Of a stretch of 64,000 nt of DNA, positions 2,226-28,595 are shown one piece after another. The notes under the pieces are model-generated. The model was not told the DNA's origin and searched no databases. It saw only the letters and a list, made by a program, of their open reading frames with translations. Source of the stretch: Octopus sinensis (Eukaryota); contig NC_043002.1 of assembly GCF_006345805.1 (NCBI RefSeq), positions 85,994,001 through 86,058,000 on the forward strand, given 5' to 3'. Positions within the stretch are counted from its first letter, which is position 1. Every line of letters starts with the position of its first letter. The translations under genes and the position numbers were made by a program.

Positions 2226-3162
2226 CTACTGCAAGGAATGAAGCCAGCATGCTCCGATGGATGTGAAATATCAGTGTGCATACTCGACGGAGTGTTAATG
2301 CCGTGAGAGAAAAGTTGGACCTAAGAAGCATCAGATGTGGTGTGCAAAAGAGACGACTGCGCTGGTATGACCATGTGGCAAGAATGAATGTGGATAGCTG
2401 TGTGAAAAAGTGCCACACCCTAGCAGTTGAGGGAACCCGTGGAAGAGGTAGACCCAGGAAGACCTGGGATGAGGTGGTGAAGCATGACCTTCGAACATTG
2501 GCCCTCACCGAAGCAATGACTAGTGACTGGGACCTTTGGAAATATGCTGTGCTTGAGAAAACTTGGCAAGCTCAAGTGAGACCATAATCTTGTGGCCTAT
2601 GCCAGGGGTGTAACCAGCCCACTTATGTGTACCTTACCTTCATTGGACACCAAACTCTGCTTGCGAAGACCTGTTGAGGCAAGTGAAATTGAAATCAAAT
2701 TCAATGACTGGCATCCATGCTAGTGGAGCGTTAAGTGTACCATACGAGTGGGATCGTTGCCCGGGGGAAAAAAGTTGGCCTCCGTTCCAATGGCACGTAA
2801 AAAGTACCATTTGTGATCATTACCTGCGTCGCCTTACTGGCACTTGTGCTGGTAGCACATGAAAAACATTCGAGTGAGGTTGTTGCCAGTGCCGCTGGAC
2901 TGGCTCCTGTGCAGGTGGCACATAAGCACCATTTGAGTGTGGCCGTTGCCAGTACCGCATGACCGGCCCTTGTGCTGGTGGCACATAAAAGCACCTACTA
3001 CACTCTCGGAGTGGTTGGCGTTAGGAAGGGCATCCAGCTGTAGAAACTCTGCCAGATGAGATTGGAGTCTGGTGCAGCCATCTGTTTCACCAGACCTCAG
3101 TCAAATCGTCCAACCCATGCTAGCATGGAAAGCGGACATTAAACGATGATGATGATGATGAC
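2226..3162 (+). mobile_element. 5'-truncated RTE-clade LINE (ORF C-terminus, 3' UTR, (GAT)n tail)
   Basis: ORF 2276..2587 RLRWYDHVARM...VEGTRGRGRPRKTW is a typical RTE C-terminus. The 3' UTR has internal ggcacgtaaaaagcacc repeats and ends GGACATTAAAC(GAT)n. Confidence 0.9.
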
Positions 3163-3276: not shown

Positions 3277-3677
3277 GCAAACATCAGTGCAGGTCCAAAA
3301 TTCGTCACAGTGAGGCATGAGAGGTGTGAAGTGGAGACTCCTGGAGAATGTCTTTAACAGGATATCATACTCTAATCTGGTGGTCGCAAAGAAAAATTGA
3401 AATATAGATGAAGCAGCCTTCTTAAGAAACAGACTACTTAACTACACAACCACAACTATGCTTTTACAGATTGATAAATTTAAAAAATAGACTGAAATAA
3501 GTATAGGGCCTGATACAATTCACTAAACCCTTCAAGGTAGTACCCCATCATAGCTGCAGCCCAATGACTAAGACCAGTAAAGAAAAAAAGAAACAAAAAA
3601 TGAATTAAACTAAATATCAATTAATATTTAATGTAAATCTTTAAAGATAAAAAATATTTCAATATTTACAAGTACAC

Positions 3678-3984
3678 AGGAGTTGCAATGGCCCAGGGAT
3701 TAGGGCAGCAGACTTGCAGTCGTAGGATTGCAGTTTTGATTCCCAGACTGGGCGTTGTGAGTGTTTATTGAGCGAAAACACCTAAAAAGCTCCACGACAC
3801 TCCAGCAGGGGGTGGTGGCAATCCCTGCTGTACTCTTTCGCTGCAACTTTCTCTCACTCTTTCTTCTGTTGGCCTGCTCGCTTAGACAGCAGGGTGGCGT
3901 CATTTGAAGGTTAAAACAATGCGAAGTGCATTGTGACTGGCGATGTGTAACAACATCTGATAGCCTGGTCGGTCACGTGATCAC
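3678..3984 (+). mobile_element. tRNA-derived SINE
   Basis: tRNA-like head with a body shared with the SINEs at 8347 and 52208, but a different tail. Confidence 0.7.
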
Positions 3985-4502
3985 ATGTACACAACACTTT
4001 GATCAGTTTGGGCTCTGATCGTCATCAGATGTCTTATTTCTGGATATTTTCATAGAACCAGATTGGATTTGAACTAAGGATATATATTTAAAATTAAGAG
4101 AAGTAACACTCTTGCCCACTTGGCCACTGATACAAAAACAAAGGAATGAGACACCTAATGACTATTGGAGGTCAAAATGATTGATGAGCTGTGTTTGTTT
4201 AATGCCCATTGTTTTCATGGACAGGGATTTATTTGGGACAGCATTTTTACATGTAGATTACACCTTTTGTGGTTCTTTTGTGCCTGATTTTCTAGTAAGG
4301 GATCTTTTATTCCACTAGACTTTGAAAGCACAGAATGGCTGGTCATAACATCAACAAAGAATGTAAACACCATATAACATTTTCACTTAGGCAGCAGTGA
4401 AAAGCAAAGCTGTGTAATATCAATATACATGCAAATACACACATACAGAAATGTACATATATACACAGATATCTAAACACACACAGACATGTACATTCAT
4501 AC

Positions 4503-4720
4503 ATCATCATCATTTAACATCTGCTTTCCATGCTGGCATGAGTTGGACGGTTCGACTAGAGCTGGTAAGCTGGAGTGCTGTACCAGGTTCCAGTCTGGTT
4601 TGGCTTGGTTTCTATGGCTGGATACCCTGCCTAATACCAGCCACTTTACAGTGTGTGCTGGGTACTTTTAATATGGCATTGACATGTGTACATTTATATG
4701 GCACTAGCACAAATGTTTTT
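4503..4720 (-). mobile_element. RTE 3'-tail fragment
   Basis: (CAT)n-TTAACATC...CATGCTGGCATG, the reverse complement of 3000-3160. Confidence 0.75.
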
Positions 4721-4901
4721 TACATGGTTCTGGTGCAGGTTTCTTGCAAATCAATCCTCTTTATCAAGAGGAGCAGCATTAACACTTCTGCTGTGGAGGA
4801 CGGATTTTCTTGACATATTTAAATAACAATATATGATGGGCTTCCACACAGTTTCTGCCTCTCAGTTTTACTTGCAAGGTATTGGTCAGTCAGAATGCAA
4901 T

Positions 4902-5115
4902 GAGCTGGCAGAACTGTTAGCATGCCGGGTGAAATGCTTAGCGGTATTTCGTCTGCCGCTACGTTCTGAGTTCAAATTCCGCCAAGGTCAACTTTGCCTT
5001 TCATTGATTAAATAAGTACCAGTTACGCACTGGGGTCGATATAATTGACTTAATCTGTGTGTCTGTCCTTGTTTGTCCTCTCTGTGTTTGGCCCCTTGTG
5101 GGTAGTAAAGAAATA
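4902..5115 (+). mobile_element. tRNA-derived SINE (gagctggcagaa...gagttcaaattcc family)
   Basis: A/B-box-like head, nested in a degraded SINE of another family. Further copies near 5305-5520(-), 15020-15210(-), 15560-15760(-), 21660-21890(-), 45585-45800(+) and 46710-46912(-). Confidence 0.75.
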
Positions 5116-5540
5116 GGTATTGGTCAATCTGAGGCTACAGTTGAAGACACTTTTCAAAGGTGACTCACAGTGGCACTTTGGGCTAGTGTTTTCTACTATG
5201 GCTCTAAGAACTTCATAATGATACAGCTATGAAGATGTAAACATCAAACCTTTTGTTGTTTCTGCAGATGAGCATAATACTCTGCAAAAATCATTATCAT
5301 ATTAATAATCCTTCCTACTATAGGCACAAGGCCCGGAACTTTAAGGGAGGTGGCTAGTTGTTTACACTGACTCCAGTGTCTGACTGGTACTTAATGTAAT
5401 GTCTCTGAAAGGATGAAAAGCAAAGTTGACCTCGGTGGGTGGAACTTGAAATCAGAATGTAAAGAGGGATGATATGCCATGAAACACTGCCTGGCATGCT
5501 AACAATTCTGCCAACTTACTGTCTTTAAGATCATATTAAT

Positions 5541-5772
5541 TGTTTCTTTATTACCCACAAGGGGCTAAACATAGAGGGGACAAACAAGGACAGACAAAAG
5601 GATTAAGTCGATTACATCGATCCCAGTGCGAAACTGGTACTTTATTTATCGACCCTGAAAGGATGAAAGGCAAAGTCGACCTTGGCGGAATTTGAACTCA
5701 GAACGTAATGGCAGACGAAATACGGCTACGCATTTCACCCAGTGTGCTAACGTTTCTGCCAGTTCGTCACCA
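5541..5772 (-). mobile_element. tRNA-derived SINE, inverted relative to the 4902 copy
   Basis: Reverse-complement similarity to 4902-5115. Confidence 0.8.
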
Positions 5773-5877
5773 TAAAAAGATCATATTGATATCTCATCTC
5801 AGACATTAAGATATTTAACCAAAAATGATACATGAAAGAATTAAAAAAGCATGCAGAGTATTGAAAGCTTATTTTAC

Positions 5878-6045
5878 TCTCTTCTTTTCTTCTTCTTCAG
5901 ATTTTGCCTTCTCTGCCATCTGCCGTGCTAATACATGCCGTTTCCATGGAGGAATGATTCGCCCAGCAGGATCTTTATCAGGAACTTGATCTAAGAAATT
6001 CTTAGGATCAAAGTTACCTTCCAGTATTGTTCGCTCTGACCGTTC
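5878..6045 (-). CDS. ESPN: espin/forked-like gene, actin-bundling module exon
   Basis: Acceptor tttcttattag, donor AGA|GTAAAA, 168 nt, phase 0/0. ERSERTILEGNFDPKNFLDQVPDKDPAGRIIPPWKRHVLARQMAEKAKSEEEEKKR matches the espin/forked signature (GRPIPEWKRQVM / IPPWKRQML). Not in the ORF track. Confidence 0.9.
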
Positions 6046-6162
6046 CTAATAAGAAACAGAATTAGAAAGTGGTTATCCATGAAACCATTACATTACAACA
6101 TGTATATATGGAAAAAAAAAGTCAAGATAGAAAATGCTAAAATAATTTTATAAAAAACATTT

Positions 6163-6198
6163 CAGTACCGGTTTCAGTCATTGAGACTTTTTCAACTG
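6163..6198 (-). ncRNA. minimal type I hammerhead ribozyme, U3-A8 variant
   Basis: CAG-TTGAAAA-AGTC(TCAAT)GACT-GAAA-CCGG-TA-CTG: stem I of 3 bp, stem II of 4 bp, palindromic stem III, GUA cleavage triplet. Confidence 0.6.
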
Positions 6199-6338
6199 TA
6201 ACAATTAAATAATTAAATTTAGAAAAATTAAAAGAAAAGGTTTTTAAAAGAATATTTGTATAGTGTTCAAATACAAGTGGCATTTTCCTTGTTTCTGCCT
6301 GTCTCTGTCTCTCTTGTTTACTCTTGTGGGTTCAAGGT

Positions 6339-6381
<43 letters not shown>

Positions 6382-6749
6382 CAGTATATAGTAACTAATA
6401 TAAAGATGTATTGTGCAATCATATTTTTATACCTATATGTGAATGTGTGTTTCTGTGAGTGTGTGTGTGAGAGGCTATACATGTATGTAGTATATATATG
6501 TATATATATATATGAACATTGATCAGATGAAAGAAGTGAAGCAAAGGCATAAATGTTTATTATGTTGACAATTGTTTCGTAATCTATGTTAGTTACACAA
6601 ATAATGTTACATCATCTGTCACACATATAAATGGATATACATACTACTATGTATACAAATATAATTATGCCACAACATAATGAACAAATTATACTTCAGA
6701 ACATTTCATAGCAGATTAGCTCCAGATGCTCTCTCTCTCTCTCTCATGC

Positions 6750-6780
<31 letters not shown>

Positions 6781-8346
6781 ATATACACAAAGGTGGTTGT
6801 ATGATTGTGAATAGAGGGATATATATTATTCAAAGGAATTCCAACTCTGTCTGTTTTTTATGTTTTATTTGTATTCTTTATAATATTAATGTAGAATATA
6901 GAATATATAGTATAAATAGTATATATAGTAAAATGAAATGAATTATTGATTGTCTTATTGAATAGATGAAATATTGAATATCAAATATTAAGGGACAAGT
7001 ATACTTTATTGCATTTAAGCAGTCTTCAAGGTCCCAGGTTGTGACAGGAGTTATTATAAGACTTAGGACCTAAATTTTAAAGTGAAAATTCTCTATTTAC
7101 TAATGTATAGGTTGACATTTTGTTATCAATTTTTAAATCTATAATTAGGATTTCAGACACTCCAAGTCTTCAGATGTTGCCTAGGGCCAAAATCTTATAA
7201 GTTAAAAAAAAAATATCTGGTGTAATGTTTGCATCTAGACAAACACACACTAATTACAGATTTAAAAATTTGATCTCAAAAAGCATTGACATATATAAGT
7301 GTGTTCCGTGTATTGAATCAAGAATGCTAAATGAGAGGAAAAAAAAGCCACAAAGCTAATTAAAATTAAATAATATACAATTATACTCAAAAATTATGAA
7401 TTAGGAAACTAAGCAAAAATAAATGGACAACATGGTTTTGTGACAACCCCACACCCTAAAAAAACTGTGAAATGTAAAATGTTGGAATTTAAGTGAACTG
7501 AGTATAAGAAGCTTGCAACTATTATATTATCTAACATTTCTCGAAGTGACATGCTTTTAGGAAGGTGAAGCTATTAACTGTGTTTTTTCTCCAAATGGCA
7601 AAGCATTCAAACAGTGTTTTTTTACCCTGAATGTTCATGAGATTAATGAATTGTGGTTACATGCTGTTAAAATTTCTAAGTTATATTTAACAGAGAAAGT
7701 GAAAGTAATTGCTTTATAATGAATTCTGTCAAGTGACCACTCAGAATACACAACATATATACTCGCTATGAAAACATTGCTTCTGAAAATATTCTTTAAA
7801 TATATAATGCTGTTACAATGAAACACTTCAATATTAAACTGTGTTTTCTTTTTTGAAGAATTCCAATTTTAACCCAACAATAGTTTAGAAAAGGTAAACC
7901 CATGAGATACCAACCACCTGAAGTTATTACTGGTTTTATGATAACAAACAATTTGTTTTATAACATTCATATATTAAACTAAAAAAAAATCTATAAATTT
8001 AATCGTTCTTTCATAATTATATGAAAGAACCTTTTGTAATATTCCAAACATCATCTCAATAATGTAGTTTTTAGTCAATTTACTTAATCCTTCCAAATAC
8101 TTGATCATTTTCAAATTTAATCGAAATAAATAGACAGCGCATTTCATTAGAAATATGTTAACGAAAATGTTTAGCAGCTCTTTAATTAAGAGTCCTGATT
8201 TTAAACATGTACAAAAATAAATCCGGATTTTAGGATATATGAAAATATATTTTTGTGAATTAGAAATAATTTAGAAAATAAGTTTACAGTTTTAATTGAA
8301 TTCCATAATATATTTTAAAATAAATTTCAAACATTATATTTATATG

Positions 8347-8654
8347 TTTGTTGTTTGTTCCTTCTCAAGCCATGCCTGGCTCATATGGGCCGGTTTCCCG
8401 GTTTCTTGGCGTATAGGTTCCCCACATGGACGGGATGCCAGTCCATTGCAGGTGAGCTGCAAGATGCAGGAGGAAAGAGTGAGAGAAAGTTGTGGCGAAA
8501 GAGTCAGCAGAAGTTTCGCTATAACCTTCTGCCGGAGCCGTGTGGAGCTTAGGTGTTTTGCTCATAAACACACACATCGTCCGGTCTGAGACTGGAACCC
8601 GCGATCCCTCGTCCGCGAGTCTGCTGCTCTAACCACTAGGCCATGTGCCTCCAC
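8347..8654 (-). mobile_element. full-length tRNA-derived SINE with 13-bp TSD
   Basis: Head GTGGAGGCACATGGCCTAGTGGTTAGAGC (A box) plus B-box-like GGTTCCAGTC. TSD ttatatttatatg at 8334-8346 and 8655-8667. Confidence 0.9.
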
Positions 8655-11512
8655 TTATATTTATATGAATACAATCTTCTTATATTGACTTCCATTGGAC
8701 ACAGTTATGTATGTACTGCAAACCTTGTCACTTATAAGGTTATTTATGGAATGTTCTATCATTATGTCTTTCTAAGTTATAATGACTGGGGCCACTTCTC
8801 ACAGAAATATGTGGTGGCATGGTATGTGTGTGTGTGCATGGCATCACAGCCTTGTCTGCTTTTAAAGCACACGCAAATAATGCTGTAAAGATGGGATTCT
8901 CAGCTGTGGTCTCTTTAAGAAAATCTCATGAGAGACTAGTATCTGTTGATTAAACCAATCCAAGTTCTTGATTTTATTTTATGAATTATGAAAAGTTGGA
9001 ATTCAATAGCTATACAACAGAGAATTCCCCAAAAAAGAGAACACATTCTTTATTTTAGGTAACCAGTCTCTAACCATTGTTTAAAATATGTATTCTCTCA
9101 ATCCTAGTTGTTGTTGTTTAACCATAAGTCAATTCTGACAGAGCAGACCTATGATCATAGATGTACCAGTTGTGACCATCACAATTTTCATATATCCAGA
9201 CTTATGTTATCCAATTTATCCCTTCTTGTTTTAAGAAGGTAAGGTTTTCTTCAGAGGGAAATTTAAGGAGATTTGATAGCCATTTCTAGCAGATTGAGCA
9301 ACTGCATATAAGCTTCCCTTGTTGTTTCTTTAATCAATCTTAGTTCTCAAACAAGATGCAAATTTAAATATTTAATTTAATGTAATATACTCAAAATATT
9401 ACTTGTTTTTGAGAGATAAATTTAACAACAAAGTAATTAAATTTACTGAATATCAATTAACTAATCCAGTCTGAAGTTTTTAACTTGAAAATAATTAGTA
9501 TCAGATAATAGACTTTAATGAAGCATACATTTCTAATTAATCTTGAACATTATGCACCAAGATCTTATAAAATAAGCAGGTTTCAAAAAGCTATTAATTA
9601 CTAATAAAGATGAACTGAACATTTCTCAGTAAATTTAATTTTATAAAAATCTTAATGAATATATGCTAACTAATGGTAATTTTTTTAATTTTTACAAAAC
9701 ATTTTTTTTTACAGTTTTATATACATTTTCCATGCAATCATATTTGAGATGGCAATTTCAACATTTGTATATTTCTGGAGTAATGGCCAATACAGATCTG
9801 TGGTTTTCTTAGTGCTAATCAAACAACTATAAGGTGGAAGTAGACCCAATAAAAACCTAACAGACTGTGGCAACAGAATATTGTCTTCCTTTAAAGCACT
9901 GCTCAATGACTGTGACAAAGTTTGAATCATTGACCTTGTGTAGTCCAGCACTCTGAAAAACATACCCATTATATTAATAAAAAATATATATATATTGTTG
10001 TTTTATAAAGTTAATTTTCCTACAAGAACACAAAATTTTAAACTTAAAAATAGGATTTCAAAAAAAGGTGTGTGATTATCATTAATAGAAAAAAAAAGTA
10101 AATTATAAAAGAATATTTCATTGTACAGCAATTACATATTACAAGTTACAGAGCATGTTTTGTGAGTTCCTGATTTTTATGGAGTTTTTACTGCTCCTTT
10201 ATCAGGGATCAAGATGTGACATCACCACAACTGCTTGTGTGACTACTTAGTGAATTACAATCTTTGTAGTGCTCTGATAAAAACAACCAGAAAGGTGTTA
10301 CCTTTATATGCAGAAATGGGCACCAACACCGATAGCTTCATAGATCAAGAAACTTTCTGGTATATCCAATATTTACATATAAGTAGAGATCCCATTTCAT
10401 AGAAAACTATTTAGAATTCAGAGTTTTGCAACATATATTCTTGCAAATATATTTATGCATTCACCAGTATCACAAATCACACAATATTACTTTTTTTTTC
10501 TTCTGTCTCATAGAATAGTTTCATGATATAGGAAAAAGTTTTTTTTTTAATATTCAGATTAGCAAGCAAAGCAATGGATTTCAACAAAAATAAACACCAA
10601 TTTTGTTATTATTTCTATGCATTTTCCCCCAAATAAATTTTTTTTTTTTTATGTAAGTATCATTTCATTCAGACAATTGGCATTAACAAAATTATATACA
10701 TAACATCTGGAAAGTTTCTTTTTAATGTTTCAAGTTCAAGCTATATAAGACTAAAATATATTTCCTTTAATTCTAAATTTCTCTTTTAGATTGGGCCCAG
10801 ATTTCAAGAAAAAAATATTTGTTTACTGTATTTAATTATGAAAATATTCACTAATCACTAAATCTCAGTGAATTCGAAGAGTAAATATGATTAGTATAAA
10901 ATTTTACTTCCATATGGAATATTGCTATGGTTGTAAATTTAAGAATCCATTATTATATTTCTCTAAAATAAATTATAACAAAGTTTGAAAATATGATACT
11001 ATCTAATTTTTAAAGCTTTCTAAATAAAAGAGATAACAAAAAAAATATCAATATTGTGAAATTATAAATTACAAATCCTTTTGTAACATGTGATTTCACA
11101 ATACATTGATTTTCATCTATTAACATATCAATGTTATGATATATATGATAAAAGTTAAGGATCTGAAATTTCTTTTAAGAAGCCAGAATAGAGTAAAACA
11201 TAGAAGAGGGTCTTGACATGTTAAATATAAAAAAAAACTTTTGTAAACTGACACTTGATAGAATGAGTAAATGTAAATAATGAAATTAAAGTTAAATTTT
11301 TCCCGAATCATGAATTCTCTTCTCTTTTGAAATATATTCTGGATAATGTTATCAGGAGGGAAAATAGTCCCCATCAAAGTCTTTCTAAAATGAAATAAAA
11401 TAAAAAATGAAAATATATATTAAACCCCATCCCATGATTGCTGTATGCAAGAAAGCATAACTTGACAGTAGCACATGTTGTGCTTCTGCTCATTTTTTTT
11501 TTTTTTACACAT

Positions 11513-11772
11513 CTATGTAGTTGCGGACAAGCATAGACAGACACTCTCTGAACCCTCTCACCTTTGACCCAGTGAAACATCCAGGATGTGACAGCTAGAG
11601 GGTGGGTGGTGATGGAGGAGAAAGTGCTGAAGCAACAGTTGGTACTCATTTTCAGCTGAGTACACTGGAGCAATGTGAAATGAAGTGCCTTGCTCAAGGA
11701 CACAATGCACTTTCTGGCCCAGGAATCAAATTCACAACCTTATGATTGTGGGTTTGATTCCTGGACCGGGCA
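11513..11772 (-). mobile_element. SINE with cagctgagt..actggagcaa..tgaaatgaagtg central domain
   Basis: Central domain shared with the copies at 17170, 22853, 39090-39317, 42262, 47020-47222 and 61600. Confidence 0.65.
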
Positions 11773-11900
11773 GCAAAAATACAATAAATTTATTATATAG
11801 ATTTCTAGACATTTTAATGAAATTTTCTTTGGATTAAGCTACAAGAATTGTTCTTAACAAGGATAAACAATCATTTCCTAAGTTTAAATGAGAAGCCTAT

Positions 11901-13839
11901 TCAATTAATGAAGGTTTCATAATGTGATTTTCTAGGCAAATTTTTATATCTTGTTTGACCATAATCTCTAAAGTTAGTGCCAATCTGAATATGTCTCCTA
12001 TCAACAAGACTTCTAAATTGCCTAGTTTTCAATGGATGCTCTATTGGCTGTTTACATATATTAAATTCAAGCATGTGGTTGCTCATTGTTTTATTCCTTT
12101 CCTCAATATAATTTCTGTTATCGTAATCGGAATAATAATAACAATCATCATAATCATCATCGACATCTTCCACATATAATCCTTGATTGAAGTTAACTAA
12201 GCTCTTTGTAAAATTATAGGTTTCCTTTTTTAATGACTCTGCTTTGTATTTGATCTCATTAACGACTGGTCCAATCCTTCGGCCACTACATCTATCATAA
12301 ACTCCCCCATTGTAAGCATAATCTGATTCAGACTCATCAGTCTCATTACCCGCAGATGTCTCACTGTCGTCATATTTGTAATGCTTGGAATCTAGAGACA
12401 TTTCTGATGATATACTATAATCTTTAACCATTACATCATCAGAGACATCAGCAAATCTTATACTTCTAGAATCTGTTGATGCTTCTGAAGACATACTGGA
12501 CTGTTTTATTAATCTTCTCTCATACGAATCCATTGATCTAAAATTCTTGGATTCAGTAGATGTTTCTGAAGAAAAACTAGATTGTAAAGAGAATCTGTTT
12601 TCGGAAATCCCCAAAGACTTTGTATATCTGGATTCTGTGGATGTTTCTGATGACAGACTAGATTCTTTGAGTCTTCCTCTTAGACTTTTAAATGTCTCTG
12701 GTCTGCCTAACCTAGACTCTTTTACATTCCTTTTTATGCCATTATTGGTTTGTGGAGAAACTAATGTAGCTTCTTTTACTTTCCCATTTAAACCTACACT
12801 AGGCTTTTTCAATAAGGTTTTTAGATCACTATCATCAATTTTCTTTTGTTTCGTTTCATTACTTTTATCATAAACATCTGATGGTATTTCTATGATTTCT
12901 TGACTTATTCTAGACAAAATATTATGCTTCTTTTTAGGAAGTTCAAAGCTTCTCTTCCCTCCCATTTGCCAAAATGTAGATATTTTTCCATTCAACATTG
13001 GTAATTTCCTTCCAGAAGGAAGAAGCTTACTTTCCCAACTATTTCCTGAATGAAAAGTTTTACAATCTACTGCTGACTTTATTTCTTTTGAAGTATCCTC
13101 TGTTTGTTTTTTATCTGTCTCCCTGTCATCCTGATTACTGTCCCCTGAATGTGTTGGGGAAATTGTTTTCTCATTAACAGACACCTCCTCTTCTATTTCA
13201 ATAAGAGAATTATTTTTATGACTTTCCAGTAACTTCTGTCGACGCAATGAAGTACTAGTAACAGTATCTTCATAGTGTCCATTTCCTACCTTTGCTTTAG
13301 GCAGTGGCTGTGGAGCAGCTGCTGGCATTGGGGTTGGTGCCTCACTGGTGTTGTTGGTGATAGTGGCAATAGGCGTGCTGGCAGTAATGACATGGCTTGT
13401 GTTTGCTGATACATTTGGTGAGAAATTTGTTGTAGGATTTGTCTTTATGTCATTCAACTTGATATTACTACTACTACGAGTAGTAGTAGTGGTAGTAGTA
13501 ATACTGGTTACAGTACTGTTGTTGTTGTTAGAAGAAGTGCTAATATCTGTTGTTGGTGTTGTGGTAGTGGTTGTTGTTGTTGGTGTTGCAGTTGAATATG
13601 TAGGAGAAACTGCAGCTGACAATGGTGAGGTAGTTGTTACAGGGACCATGCCTTTTTCAGTGTAAATCATCACAGTAGGTTCTGGTCGTGGAGTTCTCTT
13701 CAAAGTAGACTTTCCTTTTGCAGTGATCTCTGCAATTAAATCAGCACTAGAGCTTCCAGTGGAAGCATTTGGAATTGATGCTCTGCTCGGACTGTTCATT
13801 TTAGCTTCGTTGACAGTGAAACCCAGTGAATTTCTGGAA
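11901..13839 (-). CDS. read-through form of WH2 exon: alternative terminal exon with long Ser/Lys/Glu-rich C-terminus
   Basis: Uninterrupted 632-aa ORF in AT-rich DNA, stop at 11901-11903, AATAAA on the minus strand at 11789-11794. Confidence 0.7.
13290..13839 (-). CDS. ESPN: espin/forked-like gene, WH2-domain exon (spliced form)
   Basis: Acceptor tttttatcttttaaag, phase 2, matching the previous exon. ADLIAEITAKGKSTLKRTP is WH2-like (compare espin LLAEIKAGKSLKPT). A phase-0 donor AAG|GTAGGA at 13290/13289 matches the phase-0 exon at 6045. The donor position is inferred. Confidence 0.7.
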
Positions 13840-16800
13840 CTTTAAAAGATAAAAATAATTAACAGTAAAGCAAAAGCACATGAAAACAATGACAAAAAAA
13901 AAACAATGACAAAAAAGAAAAGCAATTCCAAAAAAAACCTTGAAAATATCTAAAGAAATTGTTGTATTAATGTTGTAATAGAAATAAACATGAATAAATG
14001 AAAGAACATGAGGTAAATAACTCTAAAGGAAGCTATAATGAAGTAGTTAACTTTAAAAAAGATAAATATTAATGCTCTAAAATGCAACTTTTGCAGGAAT
14101 TTGTTTCTTCTTATGGAATAGAAGACATCTTGATAACTGTGAGAGAGTTCAAAGGGTAAATAAAAATGTTTTGAGTAAGTGAATAACTCTGATTATATAA
14201 ATCAAACAGAAGAAAATTGATGAAAAGACACTTGCTGTCAGGTGGAAAATTTTTTAAAATCTATTTGAAGTCTTCAAACTGAACTTTACCAACTATAAAT
14301 CTCAAACTTCATCTTTGGCCACAAATTAGTATGTCAAAGACATTGAAATGACAGGAAAAAAAAAGATGTAAAATAAGTAAATAAATAAATAAAACAGTAA
14401 ACACAATTACAAGCCTTTGTTTTTTCATTTTCTTTGAGAAATTTTAATATTATTTATTACCTAAGATTACAGAAATAATAGAGAATAAACATTTCTTTCC
14501 TGGTACCAGCAAAGGAATCAACCACATTTAAAAGTTCAAGAGTTTTTTAAAAAAATAAACACAATAAAAATACAATAATTTTATCCTAGAACAACTAAAT
14601 TTAAATGAAACTGAAGAATAAATAATTATAAACAAATATACTTTTTCTAATTTCATATTCCAACTTTATGAATATATATATACAGTAAGAGAGCCAGCAA
14701 GGAATGGTAAAAGCTATACTTCCACTGACAATGGTTAAGAATCTGGAATTGCTTGACCAGAGAATAATGTTAGTTAACTGTAATATTTTTTGCCTAATTA
14801 CCTAATTTAATCTTAATTATTTGATATTTTCTATTACTGGAATATCAAGGTTCAATTTGAATAAACTAGAAAATGTATGTGGCTCTGAAGAAGGCTGAAG
14901 GTTCTTAACCATAGATGTTCAGATTATACTCAGATTAGAAAATTTGAATGGTGCAAAATATGACATATTTTGCTTTTAGTTTAGTACTAACTTCGGGTTA
15001 CATAATATTTGTTTCTAACATAGGGATTCAAATGTGGAAGGTGGATATAGCCAGTTAAGTCAATCTCAGTACTCAACTGGTACACATTTTATCAACCCCA
15101 AAGGGATGAATAGCAAAGTTGACCACAGCAGGATTTGAACTCAGAGCATTGAGATATGTAATTTAAATACCACAAAATATTTTGTGCCATTCAACTGATT
15201 CTGCCACTATTCTTATATTCTCAACCGTCCATCTTTTCTGTCCACTATTCCTGGGAGGGTTGTTGAAGTGGAATTCTCAGGTACCTCCTCTATAGGGTCC
15301 TATCAGTAGCAACAGTCTTTCCAGCTAGATTCCCAAGTGTCCCCAGCAGAGACTAGTGAGACTATTCTATGGATATTAACAATAATAACACTAACAAAAT
15401 TGGTGTCCAATAACTAATAAGAATTACAATTAATACAATATAAAATAGAAGAAACTAAATATTAAAAAAAATATTTTCTTTTCTAAAACCTAATTATTGA
15501 TAAAACACTTAAAAACCATAATCATTAAACTAATAATAATGATAATAATGCTTTCAATTTTGCCACAAGGGCAGCAATCTGGGAGGAAAGGATGAGTTGA
15601 TTACATCAACCCCAGTCTTCAACTGGTACTTATTTTACTAACCCCGAAAGGATGAAAGGCAAAGTCAACCTTGGCGGAATTTGAACTGAGAACAGTGACA
15701 GGCGAAATACTGGTGAGCGTTTTGCTCGGCATGATAACAATTCTGCCAGCTCACTGCCTAAAGAATAATAATAATAATCATCTTCTACACTTTCAGTTCA
15801 GGAAAACCTAAATAGAATACATCAATACAATCATTCTTACAAGATTAATGTATATTTATGAATAAAAAAAACAATATTTGAATAAGTTTGAAACATACCA
15901 AAGATATTTACCAAGACATATCAAAATTATAAACACATTTCTATGGGTATATAATATGAAAAGATAAAATACCCACGAAGAAAAAAAAACAAAATATACT
16001 GAAAATTACAGGATTAAGCATATTTTTTTTTTTAATTAAGAGTTTCCTCATAAAATTTGTTAAACCAATTTCTATCTAATATTTTCAGAAAAATGTGTAA
16101 TATTGTTTGCAAATTATCCATCACCATCAAATTTTTCCATTTTCCTCACATGACAATTTTTCCATTTTCCCCACATTTTCTTACTATACAAAGTAATACC
16201 ACTAAATTGTAAGAAATATATTTTTTAAAGAATTTCGCACATGGTTTTCCCACATAGTGCTTATTAGAACTTGTCACCCTTCACCCTGGTATAAGTTATC
16301 TAACTATAATTCATAGTTCTTAAATATGTATTAAAAAAAGAAAGAAATGTATGAAAAATGATAGGTGACAAATTAACATTTACTAATGAAGGGGTGAAAT
16401 AATATCAATATTAGCCAATGACCAATATTATTTTCATTTCTTTGGTAAGTATGGAAGACAACTCAAGACATATTTTGGCCTTATTCTGACTTCCTCCAGA
16501 AGATTAGCCTTTACTGTTCTTGTTGAAGTAGCATGATTTAATTTGAAAATATTAAGATGTCAATAATTAAACATTGCAATTTAATATGGCACTTTACCAT
16601 TTCTGCCGCTCTGTCAAACCATAGATATACCAAATATTGATTTTTAACTTGGGTGCAAGTTTGAAGGATGGTATATAGTTGATTATATATATCAACTGAA
16701 GTACTTCATGGACAATTTATTTTATTTACTACAGAAAAAGATAAGGCTCATGTTATTTTTAAGAATTAGAAAGTGTAGTTCATTGACTCTGTATGTTATT

Positions 16801-16913
16801 AGTATATCTGAACATCCCTTGGGATGTTCAGATATATTAATGGAAACTGAGGATCTGATAAATTGATTACAGCAAAAGTGGGTGACATAGCTGTAGTAGG
16901 TTAGCAGGATTAC

Positions 16914-17118
16914 TTAACCCTTTGAACCCGTGAGTACACTTTAGTAGGTAAAAGTGGGTGTTCACACAGTTTTGAGTTTATCGCTGAAAACAACACTGTT
17001 TCTGTTAGTCTGTAAACTGTAAACATAAAACCATGTAGCCAGCTGCTTTTACATCTTCCAGGTGTATAGTCAAATTGAATTATGCCTGGTAAAGTTTACT
17101 TGTGGAGTCAAAGGGTTA
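16914..17118. mobile_element. piggyBac-like MITE
   Basis: Termini ttaaCCCTTTGAacc...ggagTCAAAGGGttag are imperfect TIRs with TTAA-like flanks. Confidence 0.5.
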
Positions 17119-17169
17119 GTGTCACTAAATCTCTGTTTTCAATAGATATGTGTTTATTACACTAAAATT

Positions 17170-17478
17170 TGGCTTAGTGGTTAGGGTATTTAGCTCATGA
17201 TTGTGAGGTCATAAGTTCGATTCCTGGTGGCACATCGTGTCCTTGAGCAAGACACTTTATTTCATGTTACTTCAGTTCACTCAGCTGGCAAAGATGAGTA
17301 GTACTTGTATTTCAAAGGGCCAGCCTTGTCACACTGTGTCATGCTGAATCTCCCTGAGAATGCTAAGGATATGTGTAACTGTGGAATGCTCAGCCACTTG
17401 CATGTTAATTTCATGAGCAGGCTGTCCTGTTGAACAGGTCAACTGAAACCTTCATTGTCATAAGCGATGGAGCGTTAG
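17170..17478 (+). mobile_element. tRNA-derived SINE
   Basis: tggcttagtggttaggg (A box) and agttcgattcc (B box). The body is shared with 61230-61635. Confidence 0.75.
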
Positions 17479-19107
17479 TTAGTTACACTAAAATCTTGGT
17501 GCCACAGGTTCCAACCTTGGGTAATTTTAAGCTGTATTTATATATCATAAGGATATTTTTAGAAGTCAATTTTTCCACATTTTATAAATCATACACTGTT
17601 GCCAAACCCATTGAAAGGAGTAAAGGTCTACTGACTTTAAGTTATCCTAATTGCCCACAAAATCTCTTTTGGTAAAGACTGACCATAATTGGCAACAAAT
17701 AATAGAAAGATGTTTGAACAATGACAAGGTAAAAAAGAATTAAAACATCATAGTTTGCTAATTGGACTATTTTAAGTATTCAGAAGTAGATTTTCTTAGT
17801 AATACTAACTTTGCTTTTAGCTTTTAATTACCCTGAGAGATTTGGTTGGAAGAAAGAAAGTAGGATTGTTTAAAAATTCTACTCATTTATTAATCCTCTT
17901 GCTGCTTAAACCATTTCATGATAGCATTGGGATCAAATTTGAATAAGGAATGGGTGATACTGTTTATTGTGATTACTATTAAATTTTTATTTTTAAAATT
18001 TTGAATCCTATGGTAAGATTCTAGTTTTACTAAACACAAACTCATTTGTCAGATCAGAAAATACTCAGTATAGTTCCTTAGAGAACATCACTCATGACTT
18101 TGCTCAGCTAGGCATACTCCACCAATTATGATACACTGCATGTAATTTATCCAGCATAATAATTTGCTACTATTTGATATGTTTCTAACTATATTGTGTT
18201 GCTGATAGAGAAATGTCTTGTTGATGTCTAAGTGTACAGCAGTGACATTTGCTAACATTTGGTTTCATAAATGCAACATATTAAACAAGATATGTTTGAT
18301 TTGGTATCAGTTATTTTAAGATATTTTTATCTAATTTAACGAAATGCCAGAAAAATGCCAGAAAACTCTTGGAGCCCCAAACACTACAATATGTCTGTTT
18401 CTGCTTTTACCACTTCATTAATTTGATTCAATTTAAGGATATTTTTGTCAACAGTATTATGTTTCTGCTAGAATTTTTCCCAAAGCATAAAAAACAAACA
18501 AAAACATTTAGCATTTTTGAAAATAAAAGAAACTACCTAAGGGAAAATATTTTCTATATCAAGTTATGGATGTGTGGAAGAGAAGTTATGTGATAAAGAG
18601 TTATTTTAAATTAGATTCCACTGGGCAGCAACAACATGGATAAGTACCTTCTATCATAGCCAAAGGTTAACCAAAGTCTTGTGAGTGAAATTGAGTAAGA
18701 GAAAGTATGTAGCACCCAGCAAAAGAGACAATTCCTGTTTAGAAGTGTGAAATAAACTTAATTTCTACTTTAACACCAGGGCTTGACACCTAGTTGCCTT
18801 TAGTAGAGTACACTGTTACAAGAACTCTGGCTAGGTCTTTGGTTCAAAAAAATTTTCCACTCTTCCTTCCACCAGTTACAGAGTTCTGAGTAAGTCATTG
18901 GAAATGTAATTTTGGGGATAAAATAAAATAAAACTAATTTCCTTTGAATTTCTGAGGACATATTCTACCTAGTGTCCTCAACTTGCTTGTTATGGACACT
19001 ACATTTCAGCCATAAAACCCAACGACCTTCCTTAGATACCTGCTGTTTTCAATAATGTTCTTAGAATTTTAAAATGAAATCACAAGAACAGTAGCAAATA
19101 TAACAGG

Positions 19108-19149
19108 CACCTGAGGATGACTGGAAGGTACTACAGCCAAAACATAGTG
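19108..19149 (+). ncRNA. decayed minimal hammerhead motif
   Basis: CAC-CTGAGGA-T-GACTG(10 nt)CAGCC-AAAA-CA-TA-GTG. G12 is replaced by A, consistent with CpG decay. Confidence 0.4.
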
Positions 19150-20298
19150 ACTATAACAACTGATATTAGAACACTAGCCTGAATATGTCAGTGTACAATA
19201 AAAATAATACAACTTTAGTGTTTTACATAATCAATGATATTGAAACTGTGGAAATAAAAACCTGACTATAAGAAAGATACACCAAAACTAATAAATTTAT
19301 TCAAAGAACTTGATGAGACCAGTTCAAATACAAACTGAATAAGATTAGTTCAAATAGAAATTTATTATAATAATTTTAAATTAAACTATATTAGAACAAT
19401 ATTCTTGGCTTGAGTCTAATTTGTTTAGTTACTTAAGTAAGGATCCTACTCTTCACTAGGGTGAAGGAATTAGAAATTAGGTGTTAGTTACATTTCACTA
19501 GAACTTCTGAACTATTCTAAAACTACAACAATCATCATAATTTTCAAACCATATAAGTACAGTTTAGTTCAAGAGTTTATGTGTATTTAATATATATTAT
19601 ATGTGTGTGTGTGTTAAACTAATAATAAATGAAAAGCAAATGAAGACGCTGAAAGCAAAAAGAAAAGAAAAAAGGAAGGGATGTAATTATTGAAGAAATA
19701 AAAGAAGGGTAGGTAATCATTGGGGAAACAAGGAACAATAAGGTAAAAGGAGCCAAATAAAAGCTAAATGTCAACAGCAAAAAATAAAAAATTTATTGCC
19801 ACAATATAAAATTATTGCAAAATAAAGCAAAACAAATGTATTTTCCATTCCAAGCAAACAAATATCACGAGAATATAGCTGACCTAGAAGGTGGTGTGAG
19901 GAATGCCAGCAAAGACCTAAAAAAGGAATTGAAAGCAATTCAAACACTAAAAATTAATATCACTGCAAAAGGAAATGTGATTCTTTTTTTAAATTTTTTT
20001 TTAATCAACAAATTAGAATTCTGATTACATTTTACATCACTGCTAATTGCAGTAAAAGTTTTAAATTCTTATAATAATAGTCTTGTTAAGAAAATCTGAC
20101 AGGAAATAAAAAAAGAAAATCAAAGGTAATAATAAAAGAAAAATAAACAACATAATACTACTGGAGCAATTCTATAGTGTTGTGTTTTTATTTTGGAGGG
20201 AAGAGAACTATATATTAATTTAATTCTATGATATATAAATATCACAAGGCATTATTTTGCCATCTTGTTTCACTATTTGTTAATTTGTGATAAACATT

Positions 20299-20333
<35 letters not shown>

Positions 20334-21892
20334 ATTAAACTTCAACACATTAACAAAAGCTTCATTTTTCACATGAACGATAAATATAACTACTATAAAA
20401 GAACATTAGATTATTTTAAAGAGTTTTTATAGTAAATGAACAATCAAATGAAAATCAAGAGAGAAAATATTGCAAGCAAATTATCTATATATTTATTAAT
20501 TACATCTATTGATTTAACATTTCACAGTTTTAAAACATTAAAGTTTAATTGCCAGTGGCTTATATACACAGGCTCTATAGAAAACAAGGAAAACTAACAG
20601 GATAATGCTTTGATGCATATTCCTAATTAATATTATGATATATATATATATCATAATATTAATTAGAAGTATCAAAGCATATATATTCTAATATGATATA
20701 CATATATTCTAATTAAAAGAAAAATTAATTTATTCTATTTACTAATCAAAATACAATATTAAAAAAAAGTTTAAAATATCAACTAACTTTTAAATGTAAT
20801 ATATCAGCCAAATGAGACTTATGAGGGAAATTAAATTAACCCTTTTGTTATCATGTTTCTGTTGAAATATACTACTTTTATATTTCAATTAATTTTGAAA
20901 ATAATAAAGAATTCAATAAATAAGTTTATTAAAATAATTTTATTATTATTAAGTTGGAATTTAGAACATAAATTAACATAAAATTTTGATGGAAGGATTT
21001 CATCTAGAACACTTTAAACTCATATGGTTTTGTATTTTAGAACCAAGGGTAGTCTTGTTAAGATATAGTAACTGCAAATGATAACATTAAAGTTATAAGC
21101 TTACGTCATAATATGTACATGTATTTTATTTGTCAGGATAAAAATTTTTATGCAATTCAGGTTTTTGGTTCTTGTAGACTTAAATGAAATAATGGAGTAA
21201 GTGTTTAATTCAAATGAAACTATTGCAAATTATATTTTCTCCCATGTGATAGATTAAACCATGTAAACATTTTTTTTTATAAATTTTTTTTTATGATGAA
21301 ATAATTATAAGTTTAAAAAGACAAACTTTTAGTTTGAGAACAAGTCTTTCAACAATGAACTTCCTAGGATAACTGAGTTCTCATGTCATCTTAGCAAAAG
21401 GTCTATGTATTTGTATCCAGAAATGTAAATATCACACTCTATAAGTACAGTCATGGCTATGAAGTTAAGAATTTCACTTCTCAACCATATAGTGTTGGGT
21501 TCAGTCCCACAGTGTGACAACTTGGGCAAGCCCCTTCTATTGTAGCCCCAAGCTGTCCAATGCCTTATGAGTGAATTTAGTAGTCAGAAATACTATTTAG
21601 AAGCTTTTCATACAATATATGCATACATATATACATACATATGTGTGTATACACACAATAATCCTTTCTACTATAGGTCCAAAGCCTGTAATTTTGCAGG
21701 GTCAATGAAATACCAGTTGCATACGGGGGGTGGGGTGATTACATTGTCAATGGTATGCAACTGGTACTTCATTGACCATGAAAGGATGGAAGACAAACAT
21801 TACCTTGATGAAATTTGAACTCAGAATGTAAAGACAGAGGAAATGCTGCTAAGCATTTTGTCCAATGCATTAACAATTCTGCCAATTCGCCT

Positions 21893-21931
<39 letters not shown>

Positions 21932-21933
<2 letters not shown>

Positions 21934-22400
21934 TATTATTATTATTATTATTTATGGGTTTTTCTTCTTCTTTCAAATTTGCTTCCATTTCTTGCCGAAT
22001 GTCTTCCCGACTCCTAGGGCAAAGAAACTCATAGTATACATTGGTAGGCCATTAAACTAAACTCACTAGTTCGTTCATTTTTTTTTTTTTGATAGAAATA
22101 AAGTTAAATTAAAATACATGAGTAGTAATAGTTCTCACATCGACAATGCTCTTCTCAATACGTGTGATGTACCAGTTAAGATAATCTTTTGCATTTCTTG
22201 CAGGGATGGTAAGCCAGGGATCATTCTCATATAATTTTCAGTTCCCTTCTTGATCATTCCTAGTGCTCCTACGATTACTGATATTGTAACCGCCTTGAGA
22301 TGCCACATTTTCTCAATTTCAATGAGCAGGTCTTTATATTTTCTGAGCTTGTCAAATTCTTTCGCCGAGATATTATGATCGCAGGGGATGCTCATGCTTA
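21932..22400 (-). mobile_element. 5'-truncated R4/Dong-clade non-LTR retrotransposon in a (TAA)n site
   Basis: SIPCDHNISAKEFDKLRKYKDLLIEIEKMW...VIVGALG is the C-terminus of a restriction-like endonuclease. The 3' UTR ends in (TAA)n, and (TAA)n also lies on the 5' flank (22404-22426). Confidence 0.8.
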
Positions 22401-22629
22401 TCTTTATTATTATTATTATTATTATTAAAAACAATTTGATTCAGTTCTGAGCAGGTTAATTTTTTTTTTTAAGTTCATAACAGGAACTAGTTTGTTTAGG
22501 CACTTGAACCTAGTGAGCTACAAAACTTGTAAGTTGCATGGAGCTAAATCAAACTGTTTTAAATAATATATGTAACTTCTACTAAATATGCTGAGTGCTT
22601 CTTTCTGTCACTCATCTGTGGCTAGAGTT

Positions 22630-22790
22630 GCAGGCATGGCTGTGTGGTAAGAAGCTTGTTTCTCAACCACATGGTTCCTGACTCAGTTTCACTCTATGGC
22701 ACCTTGGGCAAGTGTCTTCTATTATAGCCTTGGACCAACCAAATCCTTGTGAGTGGATTTGGTAGACAGAAACTGAATGAAACCTGTCGT
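22630..22790 (+). mobile_element. tRNA-derived SINE 5' part (tggctgtgtggtaag family)
   Basis: Matches the 5' half of the copies at 25037 and 48200. Confidence 0.75.
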
Positions 22791-22852
22791 ATATGTAAAT
22801 ATACAAAAGATACATATATATAGCTGAATATATATATATATATATAATAATA

Positions 22853-23096
22853 AATGCGCCCATTTAAAGCCTAGCCAGGCTCATGGGCCCGGTTTCCTGG
22901 TTTCTATGGCATATGTGTTCCCCAGCTGGACGGGACACCAATCCATCGCAGCGTTACTTATTTTTGCCAGCTGAGTCAACTGGAGCAACGTGAAATGAAG
23001 TGTTTTGCTCAAGAACACAACGCGTCGCCAGGTCCAGGAATCGAAACCGCAATCTTAGAATCATGATGCTGACACCCTAACCACTAAGCCACGTGC

Positions 23097-23100
<4 letters not shown>
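22853..23100 (-). mobile_element. tRNA-derived SINE (chimeric head/tail)
   Basis: tRNA head and central domain as in the 42262 copy, tail as in the 8347 copy. Confidence 0.8.
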
Positions 23101-23173
<73 letters not shown>

Positions 23174-24497
23174 ATGTGTGTGTGTATGCATGACTGTTCA
23201 GAGTCTATGCTTTGCAATAGAAAGCAGTGAGTTGTAAATGATATTCCCTGTCAGTGAACCCCACCTAGCTCTGCACTTTTAAAGTAAAAGTGGAATGAAT
23301 AATCTCTTAGTTGAGAAACAAGTGAGCTAACATGAGAAAAGTTATCTGGCTATAAAATAAAGCTTCAATAACATGTATTCATCTAACTCATACCAGCATG
23401 GAAAAAAAGATATAAAATGAATAAACTTAGTTAACATGTTAATATGCTTTCGTCAGGAACTCTTACAAATCAACTAACTCGATATTTTACAAATTTAGTT
23501 TTTGAAATTTCATACCCATAAGATTATTTCCAAACTAAATATTTAAATAATAAAAATGAAAGACATGTTTCCAAATATAAAAAATAATAAAAAAATTCTG
23601 CACTAGTCAAATATTCATATTATAAGAGAGCTTTTTTGGTACTAAATAAAGCACTAAAATACAGGATGAGTATCAAAAAGAACACAAATAGGCAGAGGTA
23701 ATGAGTCATAGCGGCATATTTCAACAGTTTAAAAATATTTGAAATCTAAAAGTAATGTATTTACAAATCATTTGGTTTATAAACATTATGTAATTTAGTA
23801 ATTTATAAATATAAGTGAATACAGGAATAACACTTGAAGTAATAGAGAATTTGGCAAAAACAGACTTAGCACCATTTTTGCTAAACCAGCACACTCCAGA
23901 GTTAGTCCCTATTTGAGGAATGAGGAAGCTGATAGCTAAAATTGGTGGCTTTGTTGGTTTGGGAGCAGCAAGAAGTGTTTCTATACTTGGTATGTAGTGG
24001 TGAGATTGATGGAGTGGATAAGAAAAATTTGGAAGGGATTTTATCAAGTGTTTGCCTTGGATGCAAAGTGGGTAGCATACATGAAAGGTCCGTCCATGGG
24101 CAAACTGCTTATAGAGTCATATAGGTCAAGGGGTTATGTAAGTCTGTAAATTTAGAGAAAATTTTCAGAAGGGATGCAATTGGAGGTGGGAAAGATTGCA
24201 GGCTGAGTCATGCATGAAAGCAGTGTTATCTTAAGGTATGGACACACTGGACTGTCATACGGGGATGCCATGGGTTTAGGAGCCCAATACTGACCTACAC
24301 ATGCTGTGGCTTGTTGTCAATAAATAAATACTATAGGGCCTAGTGCATAATTTGGCCAAGGGGTTATAATGCTGCTAAGATGGCCTAGCATGGAGGCATT
24401 GATTTTTACCTTTTCAGAGGGTAGTATTATAAGAATTGGTGGGGGATGGGGAGGGGAAGAAATTTTCTTTCATTTGTTGTTGGCCTTGTTTGGTGCC

Positions 24498-25595: not shown

Positions 25596-28240
25596 GCATA
25601 TCCTTTTTTCCTAGGTCAGGAAAATGTGATTTGAGCAAGATTTGGCTACTACTTCTAGCATGATGGTCTGCCATCATTTATTCTGTACAGGATAAGTTAC
25701 AGGCAAGGTATGATTGATGCTTGCAATCATAGGAAGCTTAGAACTGGTCTAGTTTCGATCAATTAGCTGACTTGATGAGATACAACTGTTTGTGGCAGGG
25801 TCAGGTGAGTTGATTTGGTGTGGTTGGAAATTTCTTTGATGTACAGACAGAGGTAGTTTAGTGCAGAAGAAATCAAAAGTATGAGTGTGTGTGTGTGTGA
25901 CAGAAAGAGAGAGAGAGAGAGAGAGTGTGTCAGGGATAAGGGCGGATGAAAGCATTAGCTGCAAGATTAAATATCTGTGACATCTTGAAACAGGACCTAA
26001 CTCAGAGAAGATATGGAAGTGAGTACTGCTCCAGTAGTCAACAGGAAAAAATGGTTGGTTGATGTCTTTTTCCCGCAATTAGTTGAAGCCTGAAAAGTTG
26101 GGTTAACTACAATAGGAATATTTGTATTTCCTATATGTCTCTATCTTTTCCTAAATTCCAGTATGATGTTATTAGTATCAAACAATGATATAATAGAGAG
26201 TTTCTATTTTCAGGATCCATGTAGAGGAATGCATCTTTGACCGCCACTATTTCTTTGTTCATACAAAGTCTAGAGACAGAACTTATCCTAAAGCTGTTGT
26301 TTGTTGATAACTGAGTTCCCCTTATCCATATTTACAGACAAGAAAACAATCCAAGCACGTAGGGTGCATTACAAGCTTTTTTATTTTCTATTCCCAAGAA
26401 AAACCATCCAAAAGAGTACAGATGATCTCAGATCTGCACTTTAGTAATAGACCCAGTTTCCTGGGTTAATATCACAATGAAGTCATTGGATATATTGAAT
26501 AGAATCCATTCCATCACAAGCATTTGGATCAGGTCTCCAGTTAGAGGATAATTTTCTTGTACCAGTTTGGCAGCACTTCCTTTTTTTCTTCTGACTAAAT
26601 TAGTTATAGTAAAAGTTCTGTGGTTCCCTTTTCAATCTAGACAATTCATGAGATACAAGGCTACTGTAATTAAAAATGCAGAAAATGGATTTATTCATTC
26701 CAGTAGTTCTTTTGAGGCATCTGCAGAAATGTGTGTGATAGTCTAGTCCTTATATCTATGTCAAAATGGTTGTCAACATCACTATGTTGTTGAAAGCAAC
26801 CAGAAAAACTAAACAGTACAATCACCAACTTATTTAGAAAATAAAAAAAAGCTGCAACTGGCTTCTAAAAGTAATGGATGGAGTAATAATATAATGAAAA
26901 CAATCAAAGTATTGAACTGTCAGAAAGACATGCTTTGGAAGGAAACAAAATACAAAATAAGAGGACTAGTTTGTTGCTCCAACCACCAAAACAATCTATT
27001 TCTATAATTCTAGTTATTCTAGTATCAATGGGTTCACAGTTAGCTTATACAGCCATCAAATGACATGTTAACATCAAAGAGGATATATTTCTTCCTATTG
27101 ATTTTTGTAAGCAATAACTTTATTATCATCACCATCTTCATCATTGTAATCATTTAAATTTTAATCACAAAATATAGCCTCTGATGAAAACATGACATAA
27201 ATTTGAAAATAAGAAAACAAATGCATGGGATAGGAAATCACAAGTTTATGTTTTAACATTGTCAGATATAAATTTTACAAGACATGCAAGTCAGTTTAAA
27301 CATCAAAATAAAAGCAAACCATTTATAAATGCAGGCATATAAAATAACAGTTTATTCAATCTCCATTGTTTAGGTTTATGATTATTCTATTAAAATAAAT
27401 TATTATCTCTGTAGCTAATATTTTTGTTATCCCTATTTCAAATAGCAAAATTTAGATATTAAGCCAAAAGGAAATTTAGATTGATATCAATAAAGTAAAA
27501 AACAAACACTCATCTAGATTCTAATTAATAAATACTATAGAAGCTAATCTGAACTACAAAATAACAACATAAAAACTGTGTCATATTTTGACCAACCAAT
27601 AATTTCTTTGTTCTGCTCTTTGCAGACATTCACAATATGTAAAAATTGTATTATACATTTTATTTCTATATTGCTAACATAATATAGATGAATACAATTT
27701 TTTCAATCCATTTATTTTCTCATTAAAAAATTGCATGGCTTATATTTTATATTCCACAAAATATTTGCTTCTGTTGTTAAGTATTTATTTTAAATCTAAA
27801 TAAGATAGAAAAATTAAAATGTTAATTAAATCTAATTTGGGACAAATTATTTTTTGTGAACATTGGATCATGTAACTTTAAACAAATTACACCAGATTGC
27901 ATTAAATTTCATTTTCATTTTGAGAAGTGATTTTAAAGCTATTTGGTATGCCATATAAAAGAAAAAACTATATGCATTCCCTGCCCCCATCCACAGTTTA
28001 ATAGCTATTACTGAAACCTTTTTGTATTTTCGTATGTTTTTATACATTCTTTGAACACTTATCCCATTAACTGACAAAATGTACAATAAAGCTTTTTGAT
28101 GTATATTTTGCGAACTTAAATACCATATTAGCTTTAAATAATCTAATTTACATTTGTTTTTATATTTCAGGAATTTTTAGAGATAAATCATAAAATCACT
28201 TTTCAGTTTTATTAATAGTGTCTAGTCTATATATATTTTG

Positions 28241-28326
<86 letters not shown>

Positions 28327-28479: not shown

Positions 28480-28595
<116 letters not shown>

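Follow-up and report, generated by a model that had tools for sequence, protein, structure and literature searches.

A minimal type I hammerhead motif with a U3-A8 core in a high-copy octopus repeat, likely a passenger in an espin-like intron

We analysed a window of 64,000 nucleotides from Octopus sinensis (contig NC_043002.1, positions 85,994,001 to 86,058,000), and all coordinates below are positions within this window. The minus strand holds part of an espin-like gene. One exon of 56 codons (5878 to 6045) is open in one frame and is presumably the actin-bundling module of espin. A contig from a probable RNA run (X8 record 26, depth 104.6) covered this exon, spliced on both sides, and continued into other sequence in both directions. 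Its upstream side led to a GT donor at 13289, within a long ORF (11901 to 13841), and its downstream side does not occur in the window. The loose end of this contig defined the junction of a 7,244-nt intron (6046 to 13289, minus strand), which contains the repeat described below. The upstream exon, drawn from the ORF (11901 to 13799, minus strand), either uses the internal donor at 13289 to reach the exon at 5878 to 6045 or reads through for 462 further codons to a stop at 11901. For the read-through isoform, a sequence scan located AATAAA, a candidate poly(A) signal, at 11789 to 11794 on the minus strand. The initial annotation had described an alternative terminal exon here. The alternative end was found as the read-through ORF, but there is no separate exon, as the ORF extends the upstream exon past its donor.

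The exon at 5878 to 6045 matched mollusc espin-like proteins at 57-69% identity over 32-37 aa. A search with a relative of the exon returned 6 proteins among 268 candidates, all molluscan, and four of the six were named espin-like with ankyrin repeats. The same mollusc proteins also matched 62798 to 62917 on the minus strand, and an atlas search via a relative gave Espin as the top match (0.92). Pfam showed no WH2 or espin family in the pieces of the window searched, and espin was not identified by Pfam, by PDB or by an atlas search restricted to the exon. The read-through frame was also open in a 634-aa relative with 92% identity over 636 positions, which suggests that the frame is real. The read-through region (11901 to 13289) had no other homologue among 5219 candidates and likely encodes a lineage-specific espin isoform without the bundling module. 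A proline-rich ORF of 367 codons at 33227 to 34330 (minus strand) was also observed; this ORF and the match at 62798 to 62917 are likely further exons of the same gene.

Two smaller observations were made around the exon. A low-depth contig (5.1) from the probable RNA run, spanning 5780 to 5906, crossed the donor at 5877 unspliced, where the frame would stop three codons later; this contig could represent pre-mRNA, DNA or a short, minor isoform. At 6059, a polypyrimidine-tract position 13 nt ahead of the exon, one DNA run differed by a letter. Elsewhere, two adjacent copies of an interspersed repeat similar to an octopus SINE-like repeat lie at 5284 to 5775; the repeat has as many as 7 matches across the window. 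Three fragments resemble parts of other elements: one at 22135 to 22440 (minus strand) resembling an R4/NeSL-type endonuclease end, one at 2267 to 2587 (plus strand) resembling an RTE-type ORF end, and one at 42915 to 43241 (plus strand) resembling a Tc1 transposase. Pfam gave no endonuclease match for 22135 to 22440 and no RTE-type match for 2267 to 2587.

Read directly from the sequence, the minus strand from 6198 to 6163 forms a 36-nt minimal type I hammerhead motif, with exactly the letters previously described. Stem I consists of three base pairs, CAG with CUG (6198-6196 with 6165-6163). The core heptamer from U3 to A9, UUGAAAA, occupies 6189 to 6195, with U3 at 6195 and A8 at 6190. Helix II (6176 to 6188) pairs AGUC with GACU over 4 bp below a 5-nt loop 2 and is closed by A10.1-U11.1, and G12 to A15.1 read GAAA (6175-6172). 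The hexamer ACCGGU (6167 to 6172) is self-complementary and, on sequence and folding, would form helix III only between two molecules. By hammerhead numbering, the predicted cleavage site lies 3' of A17 (6166, the cut falling at 6165 to 6166) in a GUA triplet. Core positions 3-9 and 12-15.1, U16.1, H17 (A at 6166) and the 3-8 pair are all present, the last as U3-A8. No loop 1-loop 2 contact was evident. On both strands of the window, 6163 to 6198 was the sole match to a descriptor accepting either core, and neither a second copy in the window nor a partner hammerhead in the intron or window was found at up to 11 substitutions. The motif is in sense orientation in the espin-like intron, and 121 nt separate the predicted cut from the acceptor AG (6047-6046), in agreement with the distance of about 120 nt from the bundling exon given by the initial annotation. 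Two candidate branch points, 6075 and 6065, are located 3' of the predicted cut, as is the acceptor.

Folding of the motif depended on its context. Helix I had a pair probability of 0.69 locally and of 0.003-0.006 in the wider or element context, while helix II went from 0.94-0.96 locally to 0.38-0.49 in the wider context. The pair probability of helix III in the monomer was 0.0, which bears out the earlier expectation that the palindromic stem III needs a dimer. The ACCGGU self-duplex gave -8.3 kcal/mol, and when two copies were cofolded, pairing ran through the palindromes. The sense strand of the espin-like intron contains a single such palindrome. Small PLE hammerhead variants reportedly cleave as dimers, going by the title of a paper by Lünse et al.

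The motif lies in a high-copy repeat of about 240 bp (6103 to 6341, minus strand), for which depth defines 6103 to 6289 and 6290 to 6341 is inferred; these bounds agree with the 6104 to 6343 first proposed. Contigs from three DNA runs (X1, X3 and X6) and the probable RNA run (X8) were placed on 5780 to 6336 at 80% likeness, a placement that skipped 6290 to 6336 and favoured copies resembling the reference copy. The numbers of contigs matching the region in the three DNA runs were 4238, 2598 and 1173. Summed contig depth stepped up at 6103 in all three DNA runs, from 46.2 in the unique flank to 0.2-1.7 million in the element in X1, from 4.2 to 15,000-311,000 in X3 and from 8.88 to 7,900-61,000 in X6. 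Across the motif itself depth was 31,000-1,100,000 in the three DNA runs, with motif to flank ratios of 13,400-24,000 (X1), 26,800-44,900 (X3) and 3,500-6,000 (X6). With a depth of 3,500 to 45,000 times the unique flank in every DNA run, the U3-A8 hammerhead is repeat-borne, as had been claimed. Because summed depth is not a copy number, the number of copies, which the initial annotation had left to be counted, is estimated only as thousands to tens of thousands.

A (TA)18.5 microsatellite (6342 to 6378) abuts the element, which probably runs up to it at 6342. This tract, found as a repeat, is the likely insertion target, given the TA-rich ends of other copies. Beyond 6103 the other copies were TA-rich and heterogeneous, with TA-rich loose ends at 6103 to 6114, and agreement of the loose-end consensus in the flanks was only about 0.5-0.7. 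An extension of at least 30 letters beyond 6114 was shared by some copies, seen in 57, 30 and 22 records of the respective DNA runs. In some copies, at 6103 to 6114 and 6337 to 6345, TA repeats were followed by a 4-base inverted match at both ends; this is faintly MITE-like and could have arisen by chance. Two other subfamilies, marked by loose ends behind 6197 and 6201 in each of the three DNA runs, have additional sequence immediately 5' of helix I (on the RNA strand), and helix I therefore varies between subfamilies. The espin-intron copy departs from the family majority at 6203 and 6240 and is thus an ordinary, slightly diverged member of the family. The left junction of this copy was found in all three DNA runs, where the unique-flank contig extends 30 bases into the element. 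The three runs were 0-1 letters apart over 353 bases, and the junction therefore carries no information on deep conservation.

Variation across the family was assessed on the 40 of 47 variant rows listed, to which all statements on variants refer. Neither 6195 (U3) nor 6190 (A8) had a variant among these rows, so U3-A8 is the family state among the matched copies. The whole core heptamer (6189 to 6195) was likewise without variants among the 40 of 47 rows, and among the rows listed no variant reached 1% of DNA-run depth at any of the 13 core positions. G12 (6175) supplied the sole core row listed: in one DNA run the variant accounted for 0.01% of depth, and in the RNA run it was seen in one contig. 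Helix II did vary. A variant at 6188, giving G10.1, made up 33, 59 and 19% of depth in the three DNA runs, and a variant at 6176, giving C11.1, made up 8, 12 and 7%. These two main helix II variants are both sides of the single pair 10.1-11.1, which across the family is A-U versus G-C or G-U. The loose ends showed that each of the two changes comes with a longer loop 2; evidence for their phase on one molecule is indirect only. G10.1 was more frequent than C11.1, which may reflect G-U pairs arising by CpG decay. Zero variable sites in the 13 core positions had a P of 0.12-0.24 against the flanks and of 0.02 against the non-core motif positions. This suggests constraint on the hammerhead core, but with no significant difference from the flanks we do not take the invariance of the core as proof of selection. 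Conservation of UUGAAAA, a concern of the initial annotation, was thus seen as an absence of variants in the rows listed but did not stand out significantly from the flanks.

Hammerheads of this kind have been described before. In the available text of PMC4209133, Cervera and De la Peña describe minimal hammerheads that occur across animals in the pLTRs of PLEs, most of them single dispersed copies tied to truncated PLEs, with about 1,300 matches to the U3-A8 variant in Schistosoma mansoni. The rarity attributed to the U3-A8 variant was therefore not upheld, as it is published in PLEs (PMC4209133) and in other natural hammerheads; in the text available, Perreault et al. found natural U3-A8 cores and mention an earlier proof of in vitro activity (PMC3088659). 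Cleavage was absent in an S. mansoni minimal monomer and weak in dimers and trimers, according to the available part of PMC4209133; the in vitro activity of such hammerheads may be above what that study suggests. In the same partial source, the S. mansoni Cercyon PLE hammerheads share with the octopus motif the type I form, U3-A8, mostly single dispersed copies and the palindromic helix III positions, and family 4 (Fig. S3) has the identical UUGAAAA heptamer. In the Cercyon motifs helix II is longer, A9 is followed by an extra nucleotide and helix III lacks an insert, whereas the octopus motif has a helix II of 4 bp, lacks the extra nucleotide and carries a palindromic insert of 2 nt. The PLE motif of the shrimp Marsupenaeus japonicus, as given in Fig. 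S3 of PMC4209133, also lacks the extra nucleotide and has A10.1-U11.1, a 4-bp helix II, a small palindromic helix III insert and A at position 17; it differs in its C3-G8 core, its 5-bp helix I and its tie to a PLE ORF. Penelope is an expanded family in coleoids in the part of PMC8967140 available. Among the papers listed by a full-text literature search, no octopus hammerhead repeat family of such kind was apparent.

We consider it probable that this is a minimal type I hammerhead within a high-copy repeat, likely a truncated or non-autonomous PLE, and that the lone copy in the espin-like intron is likely a passenger. A PLE origin of the repeat is what we infer from its features, with the repeat likely being a PLE pLTR in truncated or non-autonomous form. 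The element has the traits of PLE minimal hammerheads, namely a short helix I, a palindromic helix III, U-rich and AU-rich flanks and a large dispersed family, and in the published consensus, as far as the text is available, the same architecture appears with the U-rich flank 5' and the AU-rich flank 3'. Two traits of that consensus, for which the available text lists exceptions, are missing from the motif, an extra nucleotide after A9 and a G10.1-C11.1 pair; G10.1 is present in 19-59% of family depth, though absent in the espin-intron copy. The TA-repeat flanks and the shared extension beyond 6114 fit the microsatellite insertion bias and the one-sided 30-40 bp tail of PLEs described in the available part of bioRxiv 10.1101/2021.04.23.441226. 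A motif scan of the window showed no evident PLE reverse transcriptase or endonuclease (RT, GIY-YIG). For a 33-aa open frame at the element's 5' end, the one protein found was a tandem-repeat artefact with no pairwise alignment. The same ribozyme might instead belong to another carrier, which we regard as improbable: either the monomer of a non-LTR retrozyme, or a SINE- or MITE-like element having acquired a hammerhead. The 4-base inverted match in the TA flanks could point to such a carrier, no ORF was linked to the repeat, and about 240 bp falls in the 170-400 nt range of retrozymes in the partially available sources. According to the same sources (PMC7229834; bioRxiv 10.64898/2026.07.22.740005), animal non-LTR retrozymes are short non-coding repeats with a type I hammerhead, they occur as many solo monomers and are often intronic, with 42-44% of Xenopus retrozyme copies lying in introns. 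However, the octopus hammerhead is minimal, no head-to-tail joint occurred among the 7 joints listed (6290 to 6336 being outside coverage), and the loose ends in the flanks were heterogeneous. In the literature available, canonical hammerheads are found in coral retrozymes, and minimal forms are attributed to PLEs and Terminons. Retrozymes are themselves proposed there as PLE derivatives, so the PLE and retrozyme readings overlap. A chance look-alike in an AT-rich repeat, never a ribozyme, appears very unlikely. Matches to the relaxed descriptor did occur in 15 of 300 block-wise dinucleotide shuffles, folding energy was unremarkable (z-scores of 0.15, -0.89 and -0.50), and Rfam returned only weak matches (20 and 9), none of them to a hammerhead family at E up to 10, as anticipated for a variant missed by standard models. 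Against this, any palindromic helix III was found in 3 of 300 shuffles and the 6-nt palindrome in none of 300, although these stricter tiers were chosen after the motif was seen and flatter it. The family changes at 10.1 and 11.1 also go towards the canonical G-C pair, and the motif closely resembles the PLE motifs in the available published text. Strict pattern scans for the motif gave 0 metagenome loci and 0 viral loci. A relaxed scan gave 15 metagenome loci, which we rejected as chance matches, as 14 of the 15 had fewer than 4 helix II pairs and none of the 15 showed more than short weak alignments to the element.

For the likely PLE, we propose that two tandem or partially tandem copies in the parent element would pair through ACCGGU to form helix III as a double hammerhead. 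This double hammerhead would cut the element RNA after A17 and so release the unit for retrotransposition. Dimer cleavage in the parent element is thus presumed by analogy, and cleavage of the espin-intron copy is presumably negligible. The initial annotation had instead suggested that cleavage could bias isoform choice. In such a scenario, an exapted copy would cut nascent espin pre-mRNA, alone or in trans, and favour the read-through isoform without the bundling exon. The motif is indeed in sense orientation with an intact core close to the acceptor, the competing read-through ORF exists and is still open in the 92% identical relative, and the left junction recurs in each DNA run. Precedents are the CPEB3 intronic ribozyme and the conserved intronic hammerheads of amniotes (e.g. 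RECK), which in the available part of the literature are hypothesised to influence splicing. The amniote hammerheads resemble the octopus motif in their host-intron location and proposed splicing role, but they are few-copy and deeply conserved in the available text of PMC6155905, whereas the octopus motif is one copy of an abundant repeat and the near-identity of the three DNA runs says nothing on deep conservation. We give this exaptation very little credence, and the proposed bias is poorly supported. There is no in-cis partner in the intron or window, and helix I nearly disappears in context. Transcription runs for 5.6 kb from the upstream candidate poly(A) signal to the predicted cut, leaving the signal exposed over that length, so the choice between isoforms probably precedes transcription of the motif. 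Both candidate branch points are 3' of the cut, which to matter must outpace splicing to an acceptor just 121 nt further on, and the spliced contig at depth 104.6 spans the intron. The placement itself is not unusual either. If 3,500-30,000 copies are spread over an assumed 2.3-2.8 Gb, the probability of a sense copy was 0.5-4.6% per intron of 7,244-nt size, and that of a sense copy within 150 nt of a given acceptor was 0.0001-0.001. On an assumed 200,000 introns, roughly 20-200 similar placements would be expected genome-wide. Such placements are expected by chance, and the position of the motif therefore needs no functional explanation. It is similarly far-fetched, in our estimate, that trans pairing of hammerheads on different nascent RNAs via the common palindrome could cut host pre-mRNAs and tilt espin-like output to the read-through isoform. 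If this were true, the transposon family would be a dispersed, dose-dependent ribozyme network.

For espin, a passenger copy matters little. The family is a modest addition, an abundant and apparently young hammerhead-bearing repeat in a mollusc that is invisible to Rfam and CUGANGA searches. With the U3-A8 core itself already published, in the sources as far as available, the octopus repeat family adds another carrier of minimal hammerheads. Its high copy number would permit a strong test of purging of sense intronic minimal hammerheads, and such purging bears on in vivo cutting by minimal hammerheads. Zero RNA depth at 6065 to 6102 in X8 was discarded as evidence of cleavage, as the contigs show presence only. 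A 2,122-nt contig of the same probable RNA run (record 27, 6103 to 6265, depth 40.9) bears a family copy, and a contig of this depth has a change at G12, in line with transcribed passenger copies.
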